Origin: Candidatus Dojkabacteria bacterium
Lineage (GTDB): Bacteria; Patescibacteriota; Dojkabacteria; GCA-002793355
Assembly (NCBI GenBank): GCA_015485585.1
Contig: WFTI01000035.1
Coordinates: 1-44,587, forward strand
Direction: 5' to 3'
Length of the DNA stretch: 44,587 nt
Part shown: one piece after another, positions 5,277 to 20,097 of the stretch
Numbering within the stretch: position 1 is the stretch's first letter
How the letters are laid out: every line of letters begins with the position of its first letter
Position numbers and translations under genes: made by a program
The notes under the pieces: model-generated
Seen by the model: the letters and a program-made list of their open reading frames with translations, nothing else
Database searches by the model: none
What the model was told of the DNA's origin: nothing

Positions 5277-5624
5277 TTATTGAGTATTTTGTTCCCCATT
5301 ATTGTTTTCTTTTTGATTCTGCTCTCCTTCGCCTCCATCATTCTTTTCTTTCTTTAAAGGAGGCTTATCAGGCCAGATCTTCTTCTTCTCTTCAGGAGGA
5401 AGTACTAGCTTTAAAACAGCTTCAGATGGTTGAGCACCTTTCCGTAACCATTCCTCATACGCTTTCATATCGATCTTGACACCATCTTTCTCAGCCTTTG
5501 GATCATATGTACCTATTAATGCAACATATTTACCTGTATTGCGTTTTCTGCGGGCATCCACAACTACAATACGGTAGAATGGCCTGTGTTTTCGTCCAAT
5601 ACGCATTAATCTGATCCTTAGCAT
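5277..5624 (-). CDS. rpsP: 30S ribosomal protein S16 with a low-complexity C-terminal tail
   Basis: MLRIRLMRIGRKHRPFYRIVVVDARRKR...IGTYDP...WLRKGAQPS. Confidence 0.97.
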   Translation of the reverse strand: MLRIRLMRIGRKHRPFYRIVVVDARRKRNTGKYVALIGTYDPKAEKDGVKIDMKAYEEWLRKGAQPSEAVLKLVLPPEEKKKIWPDKPPLKKEKNDGGEGEQNQKENNNGEQNTQ

Positions 5625-15721: not shown

Positions 15722-16951
15722 TTATGAAGGTGAGATTATTTTACTTGGCTCAAGCTCTTCGTGGACCACTTTGCCTTTTAACCCTTCTATACGTTCCACC
15801 TTACGGTTTATCTGCTCAGTTCTATACATTGCATCTTCTAAGCGTTTACGAGTTTTTTCAAGGTCAGCTATTGCAGACTGCAAAAGCTTTCCGAATTTAG
15901 CAAAATCGTTACGGATCATTGTAATCAACCGCCAGACCTGTTGTGTACTCTGTTGGATCTTTAAGGTCCTAAATCCTAGGTTTAAACTTATAACAAAAGC
16001 TGTAAAAGTATTAGGACCTGTGATCACTACATTGAATCTTCTTTGGATCTCTTCTATTAACCCCGGAATCTTAACAGCTTCAGCATAAAGGCTCTCCAGA
16101 GGAAGATACATTACAGCAAAATTAGTAGTTTTTGGCGGTACGATATATTTTGAGATCTTCGCGGCCTGCTCTTTTAATGTACGAGCTAGAAGCTGTAGAT
16201 TGGCTGAGATTGCCTTTTTATCAGCTACCTGATAAGCATCGATGAGTTTTTGAAAGACATCTAAAGGAAACTTAGCATCAACAGGCAAGAGGATATATTC
16301 TGAATCTGACTCTTTCGAAGGAAGCTTGATCACAAACTCTACCCTTTCACCAAGGGAAGGATTTATAAGCACATTCTTTTCATACTGAACCCCTTCTCTT
16401 AAAAACTCCGAAAGTAACCGTTCAAGTTGAATCTCCCCCCACATTCCTCGGGTACGTATACCCGATAAAACCCGCTTAAGATCTACCATCTCTGAAGAAA
16501 GACTTTTTACCTCTCCAACACTTTTTGAGACCTTATCAAGAAGGTCTTGTAAGGTGGTAAAGTGTTGAGAAAGCCGTTTGTGCAGGGTCTCGTTAAGTTT
16601 CTCATCTACTACTCCCCGTATTTTTTCTAACTGTTCTGTATTCTCACGGCGTATCTTCTCAAGCTTAACCTCTACTTCCTTTAAAACTGCCGAAAGCTGG
16701 TTAGATACTGTCTTTAGATAACCTACCTGCATATCAGAAATCTTTGAAAGTTGGTTTGTAATCTCCTCTCTGATCTCTTTTCCATAACTTCTAAGATCAT
16801 TACTATGGGTACGAGAAAGCTCTAAAAGTACATCTAGCCGTGAACCTATCTGCTCTTGCATCTTACGAGGAAGAATAAAAACCCGCCAAAAAATAAGTAT
16901 CAAAAGTCCTATAACCAACAGTGTCATAACTACAAATAAAACAGCCTGCAT
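15722..16951 (-). CDS. rmuC: DNA recombination protein RmuC
   Basis: N-terminal TM and coiled coil; RGMWGEIQLE, PVDAKFP, KYIVPPKTTNFAVMYLP-x-ESLY, LNLGFRTLKIQ. Confidence 0.94.
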   Translation of the reverse strand: MQAVLFVVMTLLVIGLLILIFWRVFILPRKMQEQIGSRLDVLLELSRTHSNDLRSYGKEIREEITNQLSKISDMQVGYLKTVSNQLSAVLKEVEVKLEKIRRENTEQLEKIRGVVDEKLNETLHKRLSQHFTTLQDLLDKVSKSVGEVKSLSSEMVDLKRVLSGIRTRGMWGEIQLERLLSEFLREGVQYEKNVLINPSLGERVEFVIKLPSKESDSEYILLPVDAKFPLDVFQKLIDAYQVADKKAISANLQLLARTLKEQAAKISKYIVPPKTTNFAVMYLPLESLYAEAVKIPGLIEEIQRRFNVVITGPNTFTAFVISLNLGFRTLKIQQSTQQVWRLITMIRNDFAKFGKLLQSAIADLEKTRKRLEDAMYRTEQINRKVERIEGLKGKVVHEELEPSKIISPS

Positions 16952-16987
16952 TAGTAGATTGTAACACTTCTTCTTTAAAATCTTAAA
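16952..16987. promoter_or_regulatory. back-to-back -10 elements for rmuC (TACAAT, minus, 16958-16963) and yraN (TAAAAT, plus, 16976-16981)
   Basis: Each hexamer lies exactly 6 nt from its start codon. Confidence 0.65.
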
Positions 16988-17329
16988 GTGAATCTCGGCG
17001 AGCTTATAGCCAAATATGAACTAGAGAAAAGAGGATACAAAGTCATTAAAACCAATCTGCGTATAGATCACCTAGAGATTGATATTCTAACCTATAAAAA
17101 CGGTAGATTAAAAACCTGGGAAGTAAGAATGCGAACAAGTTATACATATAATAGATCAGATATTCGGAGTTTCTTAACAAATTTAAAAGCCAAACGCCTT
17201 TTAAAAGCTACCTATAAACTAGAATCTAAGATCAAACATCCACTTAGTATCGGTTTAATCTTAATCTCACGTATAAAGCGTAAAGACCGTACTATGTATA
17301 TAATAGACCTCTTGCCTGATCCTTGGTAG
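16988..17329 (+). CDS. yraN: YraN family (UPF0102) protein
   Basis: GE-x-x-A...KRGYKVIKTN, EIDI, and EVR in place of canonical EVK. Confidence 0.75.
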   Translation: MNLGELIAKYELEKRGYKVIKTNLRIDHLEIDILTYKNGRLKTWEVRMRTSYTYNRSDIRSFLTNLKAKRLLKATYKLESKIKHPLSIGLILISRIKRKDRTMYIIDLLPDPW

Positions 17330-17541: not shown

Positions 17542-19314
17542 CTAAAGCCGTAGAAAGTGCCTATCTATTTCATCCCGCAGAATCTCCCAAATTACAGGCC
17601 TGCCATGAGGACAAACATGAGGATACTTACATTTAAGCAACCTTAATACGAGATCTTCTATCTGCTCTTGCGTCAATGGTTCATTTGCTCTTACTGAGCT
17701 GTGACAAGCCTTTGTGGCGATAGCATATCTAAGAGGTTCATAAAGTTTTCTATTTATGTATTCCTTTAAGTCTAAAACACCTTTTTCTTCTGTAATGATC
17801 TCAAGAAGCTGGTTAATAAAATCCGTTAATTCTTCTGGGGGAATAAAAGAAGGAGCAGTATATACCTTTAAACTTCCCTTACTCTCTTTAAATTCAGCCT
17901 CTATACCTAATTCGTGAAGAAGTAAAAGAAGTTCCTTCCTATCAACCGTATCTTTCTCAACCTTTATGGTCAAAGGACGTAATAGTTTTTGCTTGGCATC
18001 ATCTATTCTTTCTTCACCTCCTAACTCTTCAAAACGTATTCGCTCTGCAGCAGCATGTTGATCAATAATCCAGATACGATCTTGGAATTCTACTAATATA
18101 TAACGGTTCATTAGCTGAATCATCTGAACAATATTTCCTGTTTCTGGGGACTTAATTTCAGAAGATTCTTCTACCTGCCTCAAAGATCGTAATGGTAAAA
18201 AAGAAGAAACAGAAGAAGATATCTTTTGTGAAGATTCTCTAGGTTTGATTATTTCGATTTTATTGATCTTTTCAGCCACAGTGGGCTGTAAACTTGGCTT
18301 TGGAAGATATATAGTACCTCTACCTACTGTATCTTTAACTATACTTCCTAATCTCTCCTTTATTGCCCTTTGAACAAACTGCATAACACGATAGGGATTC
18401 TTAAACTTTACCTCTATTTTACGTGGATGTACATTCACATCCACAAGATACGGGTCGACAAAAACCTTAATAACCCCGGCTATCTGGCTAGATTTTAGTA
18501 CGAAATCTTCAAAAGCAAGATTTACTGCTTTCTGTAAGTATCGGTCTTCTACCACCCGATTATTTACCAAGATCTTAAATACCCGTTTTCCTTCGGTATA
18601 CTTATCAGGTCTCACTATTACCCCTTCTACCTTTATAGCTCCAAAATTTCTTGATATCTCTAGAAGATCTGAAGTTTGATAGCCTGTCACATCTGCATAT
18701 CTAGACAAAAGATCTTTACGTGATACAAGATCATATAAAACTCTATTATTATGCTCTAACTTTAAATGAATCAACGGATTTGCAAATGCTAGGGCTAAGA
18801 AGATATCGATATCATGTTTTAGTTCTGTTTTTACTGTTCTTAAAAACTTACGTCTTGCTGGCACATTATAAAAGAGATCCTCAACAACCACCGTAGTTCC
18901 CACATTACGAGCAAGGGGTACTATCGTATCCTCAAAAACCTTATAAAGATAGCCAACTTTACTATCAGGAGTTCTACTATGGATACTTACTTTTGCAACC
19001 TTACTTATTGCTGCTAAGGCTTCTCCTCTAAAACCAAAGGTTACTAGCCGTTCAAGATCTTCTAATCTGGAGATCTTACTGGTAGTATATGATGCTACTG
19101 CAAGCCTTAAGTCATCCTTAGCTATCCCTACCCCATCATCTGCAACTGTAATCTTGCGTATTCCTCCATCTTCTAATGAAACTGTTATTTTCTGGGCTTG
19201 CGCGTCAAGGGCATTCTCGATTAACTCCTTCAGCACAGAAGCAGGACGCTCTACAACCTCTCCAGCAGCAATCCTTTCTGCTACCTCTTTAGGTAATTTG
19301 CGAATTATGCCCAT
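17542..19314 (-). CDS. mutL: DNA mismatch repair endonuclease MutL
   Basis: IAAGEVVERPASVLKELIENALDA, GFRGEAL, VDVNVHP; endonuclease motifs DQHAAAERIRFE, ACH and CPHGRP. Confidence 0.98.
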   Translation of the reverse strand: MGIIRKLPKEVAERIAAGEVVERPASVLKELIENALDAQAQKITVSLEDGGIRKITVADDGVGIAKDDLRLAVASYTTSKISRLEDLERLVTFGFRGEALAAISKVAKVSIHSRTPDSKVGYLYKVFEDTIVPLARNVGTTVVVEDLFYNVPARRKFLRTVKTELKHDIDIFLALAFANPLIHLKLEHNNRVLYDLVSRKDLLSRYADVTGYQTSDLLEISRNFGAIKVEGVIVRPDKYTEGKRVFKILVNNRVVEDRYLQKAVNLAFEDFVLKSSQIAGVIKVFVDPYLVDVNVHPRKIEVKFKNPYRVMQFVQRAIKERLGSIVKDTVGRGTIYLPKPSLQPTVAEKINKIEIIKPRESSQKISSSVSSFLPLRSLRQVEESSEIKSPETGNIVQMIQLMNRYILVEFQDRIWIIDQHAAAERIRFEELGGEERIDDAKQKLLRPLTIKVEKDTVDRKELLLLLHELGIEAEFKESKGSLKVYTAPSFIPPEELTDFINQLLEIITEEKGVLDLKEYINRKLYEPLRYAIATKACHSSVRANEPLTQEQIEDLVLRLLKCKYPHVCPHGRPVIWEILRDEIDRHFLRL

Positions 19315-19332
19315 ACACGATTATAATTGAGC
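19315..19332. promoter_or_regulatory. symmetric bidirectional promoter: palindrome ATTATAAT (19320-19327) gives TATAAT on both strands
   Basis: CAT-acacg-ATTATAAT-tgagc-ATG, with a 5-nt spacer to a start codon on each side. Confidence 0.75.
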
Positions 19333-20097
19333 ATGATCGATCTTGATACAAAGATAAAACGTATGAGAAAACTCGGTAAGATTCACGCAACAATACTAGA
19401 AGAACTAAAATCCCGATGTCGCCCGGGAATTAAAAAACTTGAAATAGAGGAATATTTTAAAGAGCTTCTTAATAAATTTCCCGGTATAAGATCAGCATGT
19501 AAAGGATACAAACCCGTCGGATACAGAAATCCCTATCCCACAAATCTCTGTATCGCAAAAAATGAAGAAGCGATCCATATACCTCCAAATAAAAGCGTAA
19601 TACAAGAAGGCGATCTGGTCACAATAGACCTTGTGCTTACAGATAGTCTCGTATATACCGATGCTGCAGTATCGTTTATTGTAGGAGAAACAAGAAAAAG
19701 ATCCCGTATAAAACTGTTACAGACTGCATATAATGCTCTTTATAGTGCAATAAGCAAGCTCAAAGATGGTACAAACGTAGGAAAACTCTCTTTTACAATC
19801 TATTCTATAGTAAAGAAAGCAGGCTTTGATGTCTTAAAGGAATACGGAGGCCATGGTATCGGAACTCAAATGTGGGAAGATCCTTTTATTCCGAATTATG
19901 GCGATCCACATGAAGGGCCTATATTAAGCGAAGGAGATACCTTAGCGATCGAACCATTGGTGTGTGAAGGGGACGATCGGTTAGAGTATCTTGATGAATG
20001 GTCAACACGTACTTTAGACCGAAAAGATTTTGTTCAGGTAGAACATACCGTACTTGTTCTAAAAGATAGGGCCGAAATCCTTACAAGTTTTGATTAG
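19333..20097 (+). CDS. map: methionine aminopeptidase type I
   Basis: H-x-P, GDLVTIDL, YTDAA, GGHGIG, LAIEP and VEHT motifs; start moved from TTG 19327 to ATG 19333. Confidence 0.95.
   Translation: MIDLDTKIKRMRKLGKIHATILEELKSRCRPGIKKLEIEEYFKELLNKFPGIRSACKGYKPVGYRNPYPTNLCIAKNEEAIHIPPNKSVIQEGDLVTIDLVLTDSLVYTDAAVSFIVGETRKRSRIKLLQTAYNALYSAISKLKDGTNVGKLSFTIYSIVKKAGFDVLKEYGGHGIGTQMWEDPFIPNYGDPHEGPILSEGDTLAIEPLVCEGDDRLEYLDEWSTRTLDRKDFVQVEHTVLVLKDRAEILTSFD

Follow-up and report, generated by a model that had tools for sequence, protein, structure and literature searches.

A shared -10 octamer between the divergent mutL and map genes of a Dojkabacteria genome: a predicted bidirectional promoter for leaderless mRNAs

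How can two genes that point away from each other both be expressed when only 18 bp separate their start codons? The question is raised by mutL and map, the latter encoding methionine aminopeptidase, which lie back to back in a genome of a Candidatus Dojkabacteria bacterium (GenBank assembly GCA_015485585.1, contig WFTI01000035.1, positions 1 to 44,587 of the forward strand). This whole stretch of 44,587 nucleotides, referred to below as the window, corresponds to contig C35 in an assembly of 598,342 bases (G000; 39 contigs, 91% complete), and its GC content runs from 35 to 40%. A first-pass annotation of the window had proposed that a single 8-bp element launches two leaderless mRNAs. Counts across the genome and the retention of the mutL box in the family supported this proposal; the map side of it was not found in relatives. 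On balance the 18-bp spacer is probably a sigma-70-type bidirectional core promoter that gives mutL and map mRNAs which are leaderless or carry a leader of one or two bases; that both genes are leaderless is most likely.

The mutL-map spacer

Positions 19312-19335 of the window read CAT-acacg-ATTATAAT-tgagc-ATG. The first triplet (19312-19314) is the start codon of mutL on the minus strand and the last is that of map on the plus strand; between them the palindrome ATTATAAT (19320-19327, both strands) is flanked by acacg (19315-19319) and tgagc (19328-19332). The palindrome contains two perfect -10 hexamers that overlap by 4 bp in a TATA core. The TATAAT for mutL lies on the minus strand (19320-19325, read from 19325 to 19320) and that for map on the plus strand (19322-19327), and each is separated from its ATG by 5 nt. 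This layout was taken from direct reading of the sequence and matches the first-pass description exactly. The 24-base geometry CATN5ATTATAATN5ATG was present once in the window, with an expectation of 0.00, and was matched in none of 100 dinucleotide-preserving shuffles.

An in-frame TAA lies within the palindrome on both strands (19324-19326 on the plus strand, 19323-19321 on the minus strand). The mutL start can therefore only be ATG 19314, and the map start only TTG 19327 or ATG 19333. Read from its sole possible start (ATG 19314-19312, with the in-frame TAA two codons upstream), mutL (17542-19314, minus strand) encodes 590 amino acids with the Pfam domains HATPase_c_3, DNA_mis_repair and MutL_C. 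From ATG 19333, map (19333-20097, plus strand) encodes 254 amino acids with the Pfam domain Peptidase_M24. The alternative TTG (19327-19329, plus strand) is in frame, its first base being the final T of the -10 box of map, and is disfavoured.

The surroundings of the two hexamers differ. A -35-like TTGCGA for map is found on the plus strand at 19298-19303, inside mutL codons, with an 18-nt spacer to the hexamer and 10 of 12 matches overall, whereas the best -35 match in the mutL direction reaches only three of six positions. The expectation that any -35 element would be located in the opposite gene thus holds for map. The map direction is probably the stronger one on paper because this partial -35 in mutL has no counterpart in the mutL direction; a weaker mutL direction would suit a low-abundance repair protein. 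The extended -10 element TGn was found at neither hexamer: the three bases on the 5' side are GAT for map and AAT for mutL, because the palindrome dictates AT there. No word resembling a Shine-Dalgarno (SD) site was found in the spacers between the boxes and the ATG codons (cgtgt for mutL, tgagc for map) or before TTG 19327, and a simple scan of the plus strand upstream of map (18800-19332) gave no second promoter-like site.

Transcription is predicted, from the genome-wide pattern described below, to start at the A of each ATG, that is at 19314 on the minus strand for mutL and at 19333 on the plus strand for map. Both positions are 6 nt past the respective hexamer, and both match the pyrimidine-purine start pattern of the genome, the A at 19314 following a T and the A at 19333 following a C.

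Start-proximal -10 boxes in the genome

Open reading frames (ORFs) were called with a script of our own that took the longest ORF in each stop-to-stop frame and removed overlaps greedily. Two sets were used, one of ORFs of at least 100 amino acids (n = 489) and one of at least 60 amino acids (n = 561, of which 549 were usable). A -10-like box was defined as a hexamer with at least five of six matches in which A2 and T6 were required.

Exact TATAAT started at positions -11, -12, -13 and -14 in 49, 33, 15 and 14, respectively, of the 489 longer ORFs and at any other upstream position in zero to three. Counted without reference to ORFs, the genome contains 667 copies of TATAAT on both strands; an ATG follows after 5, 6, 7 or 8 nt in 64, 53, 31 and 19 cases (167 together), and after each of the other spacers in 4-12. 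A -10-like box at spacers of 5-8 nt preceded 203 of 549 longest-ORF starts versus 127 of 7215 internal ATG codons, and in the window alone 21 of 47 ORFs; genome-wide the spacing between box and ATG peaks at 5-6 nt. SD-like 4-mers, in contrast, were seen at 48 of 549 starts versus 15% of controls, and were neither enriched nor concentrated at any position.

These counts bear on the start of map, which the first-pass annotation had suggested moving to 19333. Exact TATAAT at spacers of 5-8 nt goes with ATG 130 times, with GTG six times and with TTG once; at 5 nt, the commonest spacing for the exact box, the figures are 52, 0 and 0. There is no box before TTG 19327. Comparison was made with 60 species genomes (G001-G060; 61 with that of the window), among which the family of the window's genome comprises 11. 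In five of the other family genomes the methionine that aligns with residue 1 of the protein from ATG 19333 is the start of the Map orthologue, and in two of these five an in-frame stop codon 6-9 nt upstream makes the aligned methionine the only possible start. ATG 19333 is therefore favoured over TTG 19327, because exact boxes at a spacing of 5 nt go with ATG only and Map orthologues start there.

Whether the boxes act in transcription or in translation was judged from their composition and context. The genome has one sigma-70 gene (C19:10333-11547), with regions 1.1, 1.2, 2, 3 and 4. Alignment of 260 boxes gave the base frequencies T.96, A 1, T.73, A.97, A.87 and T 1, the values of 1 at A2 and T6 being imposed by the filter. 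On the 5' side of these boxes T (.50) and G (.46) were found at the extended -10 positions TGn, with T (.48) another two bases upstream and a weak TT where a -35 element with 17-nt spacing would begin. TGn was found upstream of 32% of the 159 boxes that precede first genes and of 30% of the 87 that precede same-strand genes in close succession, versus 5% of 2389 gene-interior hexamers, and a -35 match of at least four of six positions accompanied 23, 21 and 12% of these three classes, respectively. A pyrimidine occupied position -1 in 78% of the spacer-5 class (80 genes), in 69% of the spacer-6 class and in 49% of box-less genes, and in the spacer-8 class an A was present at -2 in 81%; a purine about 7 nt past the box therefore tracks the box and not the ATG.

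A competing explanation is that the TATAAT-like motif is a translation-initiation signal, a ribosome-binding site (RBS) of the non-SD kind assigned to `group B' by GeneMarkS-2, carried on leadered or polycistronic mRNAs. Such a signal would account for the similar frequency of the box at genes 1-15 nt behind a same-strand neighbour (39 of 103) and at divergent genes (70 of 148), and a motif common to first and internal genes is indeed read as a non-SD RBS in the GeneMarkS-2 scheme (PMC6028130). It would also fit the disuse of SD words in a genome whose 16S rRNA keeps the anti-SD core CCUCC near its 3' end, ACCTCCTTA (L001 3010-3070, contig C38). The motif nevertheless has the sigma-70 -10 consensus, the excess of TGn and a weak, properly spaced -35, its purine follows the box, and the form TGnTAnAAT is conserved in mutL orthologues, as described below. 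Furthermore, of the 36 ORFs that make up the ribosomal-protein cluster only six have a proximal box, namely those of EF-Tu, S19, an L15 match that is weak and below the Pfam cut-off, SecY, a LigT-like gene and S13; the box is therefore no general translation signal. A role in translation is accordingly held to be distinctly unlikely, and the motif class as a whole very likely represents promoters.

Box-less genes have a different signature. TAAGAT/GATAAG-type words were present about 20-26 nt before the ATG in 65 of 288 of them, versus 8.9% of internal ATG codons and 20 of 260 box-bearing genes. These words reach their highest share where same-strand genes lie close together (41 of 142) and are also seen often in the ribosomal-protein cluster, and they are followed by an A-rich position 6-7 nt on and then by a purine-rich stretch; examples in the window precede the starts at 5624, 12099, 13084 and 42412 (minus strand). 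The TAAGAT-type word could act in translation, as a non-SD signal, or could be a -10 variant, in which case the leaders would be about 9 nt long. In the same cluster the ORF with the weak L15 match comes immediately after the S5 gene (L075 9616-10486; C32:26616-27486), with no L30 ORF between them, no search for the L30 family having been made. Bacteria of the candidate phyla radiation (CPR) typically lack L30.

Boxes at both ends of a divergent spacer proved to be common. After start refinement, 31 of 74 divergent ORF pairs had a box 5-8 nt from both starts, with spacers from 18 bp upward. The octamer ATTATAAT occurs 23 times in the genome, several of the copies lying between divergent start codons. 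It is common to five divergent pairs, with spacers of 18 bp (mutL-map on C35 and C4:564-587), 20 bp (C14 and C37) and 21 bp (C13), while ATTATATAAT is common to two others with spacers of 21 bp (C32) and 26 bp (C19). Three more octamer sites between divergent start-type codons (C1, C15 and C17) fall outside the refined count. The pair on C4, a twin of the mutL-map locus with the same 18-bp geometry, consists of an unknown 133-residue ORF and an AhpC/TSA gene. The mutL-map locus is thus the compaction limit of a common genome-wide arrangement and no special device.

The perfect 8-bp palindrome centred between two genes might instead be taken chiefly for an operator through which a dimeric regulator governs mutL and map jointly. 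The same octamer is found between unrelated pairs (an AhpC/TSA gene with an unknown gene, and a DUF2298 membrane-protein gene with an unknown gene), two overlapping -10 boxes explain it fully and no regulator gene is adjacent; an operator is considered highly improbable.

Three further divergent pairs were noted. In the window, rmuC (minus strand) and a UPF0102 gene (plus strand, GTG start) are 36 bp apart (16949-16990), and their -10-like boxes, TACAAT and TAAAAT, are each 6 nt from a start and do not overlap. The sigma-70 gene is itself one half of a pair with a 20-bp spacer, CATaaaataattataccactcacATG (C19:10312-10333; L058), in which a clear -10 box (ATTATA, opposite strand) was seen for the left-facing gene only. 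An 11-bp spacer, CATatcattattatATG (C15:5769-5785; L076 769-785), was not counted because both genes have plausible alternative starts; in this ambiguous candidate each -10-like box would reach the start codon of the other gene, and the start sites would be 12 apart.

Conservation in relatives

The box is a feature of the family. The pattern TATAATN{5,6}ATG was 2.7- to 8.3-fold more frequent than its reversed control in all 11 family genomes (117 versus 23 in the window's genome), and for the majority of the other families in the class the ratio was near 1, the exceptions being family f6 (G015, 63/21; G041, 88/22) and genome G055 (169/24). When the longest-ORF profile was repeated on 38-80 kb from each of five relatives, weak peaks were obtained, with TA[TA]AAT at -14 to -11 in between two of 28 and ten of 52 ORFs. 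The exact 24-base geometry was found at five sites in four of the 61 genomes and its reversed control in none of the 61; the same-genus genome has its site between the genes for a DUF2298 membrane protein and an unknown protein.

For mutL, 10 of the 11 family genomes have a box with five or six of six matches located 5-7 nt upstream of the ATG, eight of them with TGn. The box is of the type TGnTAnAAT and the surrounding sequence is otherwise dissimilar. In the ten box-bearing genomes the ATG has an in-frame stop codon 6-12 nt before it; in the remaining one (G005) the distance is 27 nt. The conserved mutL box is the phylogenetic footprint of a predicted leaderless promoter of the extended -10 type.

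The map side is different. Nine family genomes, including that of the window, have a map start that could be examined (the map locus of a tenth is incomplete and was left out of the start comparison), and a box faces map in the window's genome only. The first-pass annotation had named conservation of the arrangement as a check, and here the outcome was negative: among 30 map loci examined in the 61 genomes, the divergent mutL-map order was seen in the window's genome alone. A tblastn search of metagenome and genome contigs gave no close Map relatives. In the same-genus genome (G001; C31, L032 12943-19164) a 779-residue ORF, a 160-residue ORF, a 242-residue ORF, mutL and map follow one another on one strand, the TAG of mutL abuts the ATG of map (TAGATG junction) and no box precedes map. 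The first three of these ORFs are taken, by size and order only, as the counterparts of the 778-residue ORF, rplS and rnhB of the window. In the window's genome (17542-23561) map is inverted between rnhB and mutL, unlike the order in G001. At its other end map (plus strand, ending at 20097) overlaps the RNase HII gene (minus strand, ending at 20081) tail to tail by 17 bp (20081-20097).

These comparisons would suit an explanation in which only the mutL-facing promoter works, the TATAAT of map is a passive mirror image and map is expressed from a leadered transcript that starts inside mutL, possibly with translation from TTG 19327. The uneven conservation of the two boxes and the box-free TAGATG junction in the same genus speak for such an explanation, and symmetry by itself creates mirror hexamers (Warman, Forrest, Wade & Grainger, bioRxiv 10.1101/2020.01.31.928960). 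On paper, however, the map side is the better promoter, with its TATAAT and TTGCGA at 18-nt spacing, and the simple scan offered map no other. An SD-like word is missing before either candidate start of map, TATAAT at 5 nt before ATG is the commonest start context of the genome, and the start residue of Map orthologues corresponds to ATG 19333. Transcription from the mutL side alone is thus judged unlikely.

With a promoter working in both directions, the simplest reading of the comparison is that the mutL promoter is ancestral in the family and that the map-facing box arose when map came to lie back to back with mutL. The box would then have turned into the perfect palindrome ATTATAAT, by which mutL lost its TGn and map gained a -10 element of its own, the mirror image of the mutL box.

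Proposed mechanism, precedents and meaning

In the mechanism that we favour, the two perfect -10 hexamers on opposite strands would be used through the self-complementary TATA core of ATTATAAT that they have in common. A single sigma-70 holoenzyme would bind in either orientation and melt the shared core; in one orientation the first nucleotide of the transcript would be the A of the mutL ATG (19314) or one adjacent to it, in the other that of the map ATG (19333), and both mRNAs would be translated without an SD site. That polymerase occupancy is mutually exclusive, as the first-pass annotation held, is a reasonable inference. The two open complexes would not coexist on the octamer; the weight of this exclusion depends on promoter strength. 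At five bidirectional promoters of E. coli put to the test, low basal transcription left no scope for meaningful competition (PMC12825309).

Several observations weigh against this mechanism. With no TGn at either hexamer and a -35 match of only three of six for mutL, either direction could be weak. The 5-nt spacer puts the A of the ATG 6 nt past the box, one short of the E. coli optimum of 7 bp (PMC12825309), and a transcript beginning at the G of the ATG would lack an intact start codon. TATAAT alone is insufficient, as 168 sense and 179 antisense copies (347) lie inside genes; codon shuffles gave 271 and 381, respectively, and control AT-rich hexamers were equally depleted. The box at 39 of 103 genes close behind a same-strand neighbour is what a translation signal would likewise predict. 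The map-side box is absent from the eight other family genomes with an examinable map start, and the divergent arrangement does not extend even to the same-genus genome. Finally, the ORFs and their starts come from a heuristic caller, with no trained gene finder behind them.

Two-way transcription from -10 symmetry, which the first-pass annotation cited as established in bacteria, has a clear precedent. Warman et al. (bioRxiv 10.1101/2020.01.31.928960) reported that such symmetry makes E. coli promoters bidirectional; the start sites are mostly 18 bp apart, with hexamer positions 2 and 6 pairing, and spacings of 29, 23, 12, 10 and 7 bp also occur. The mutL-map spacer resembles this type in that two opposed -10 hexamers overlap, by 4 bp in this case, with predicted divergent starts on either side. 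Divergent starts 7-25 bp apart are expected of this type; the predicted mutL and map starts are 19 positions apart, and 18-19 bp is the commonest distance in proteobacteria and actinobacteria. As in that type, the binding of one polymerase should exclude that of the other (PMC12825309; NAR 2026). The spacer differs in its register, positions 1-4 pairing with 4-1 in the TATA core and not 2 with 6 as in the main class, and in the distance of 6 nt, not 7, from box to predicted start. The mutL-map products are also predicted to be leaderless housekeeping mRNAs, whereas the word `leaderless' does not appear in PMC12825309. The first-pass view that the spacer comes close to the smallest possible divergent control region has to be given up, in the light of the E. 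coli start spacings of 12, 10 and 7 bp and of the ambiguous 11-bp candidate in the same genome.

For leaderless expression, precedents are found in GeneMarkS-2 group C (PMC6028130), Deinococcus deserti (PMC4007540) and M. tuberculosis (PMC3898074), where, as here, a Pribnow-type box lies just before the start, an SD site is missing and ATG-type starts dominate. The leaderless genes of M. tuberculosis have the Pribnow box 6-8 nt before the start (group C; PMC6028130), and the species has a divergent leaderless pair, prpD/Rv1129c, and closely juxtaposed divergent promoters (PMC3898074). Both mutL and map have a box at a spacing of the group C kind (TATAAT, 5 nt) and no SD site between promoter and start. 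In group C the box is expected at the first genes of operons and an RBS at internal genes; the present genome has the box at 39 of the 103 genes close behind a same-strand neighbour and at six of the 36 ribosomal-protein-cluster ORFs. The commonest spacer here is 5-6 nt versus 6-8 nt in M. tuberculosis. The present family further differs from the known leaderless lineages in being of the CPR type and not of the Actinobacteria or Deinococcus, in its near-perfect TATAAT with frequent TGn, in the many close same-strand genes that carry a box and in its box-less genes, which lack an SD site and often have TAAGAT. In the accessible parts of the literature on leaderless mRNAs and SD sites in CPR bacteria/Patescibacteria, no account of -10 boxes replacing SD sites was found.

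The mutL-map locus thus combines two known things, two-way transcription from -10 symmetry and leaderless mRNAs, and the genome context is more interesting than the locus itself; its value lies in the view that it gives of how expression is organized in ultra-small CPR genomes. For between a third and a half of the genes in this family, start-proximal -10 boxes appear to take the place of SD sites. A fuller account of the family, to which we give about an even chance, would run as follows. SD sites would have been largely abandoned despite the CCUCC of the 16S rRNA. A third to a half of genes, many of them 1-15 nt behind a same-strand neighbour, would be leaderless with a -10 or extended -10 element of their own, and most others, those of the ribosomal-protein cluster among them, would rely on another signal, in many cases TAAGAT about 21 nt upstream. 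Intergenic DNA would have shrunk as far as a shared -10 octamer, and the relocated map would be expressed through perfection of the mirror image of its neighbour's box.

For annotation, gene starts in the family can be called by a TATAAT-N5-8-ATG rule and not by an SD model, which in the present case shifts map from TTG 19327 to ATG 19333. For the organism, promoters appear to lie within the coding sequences of adjacent genes, and intergenic DNA can shrink to 18 bp with both predicted promoters kept.

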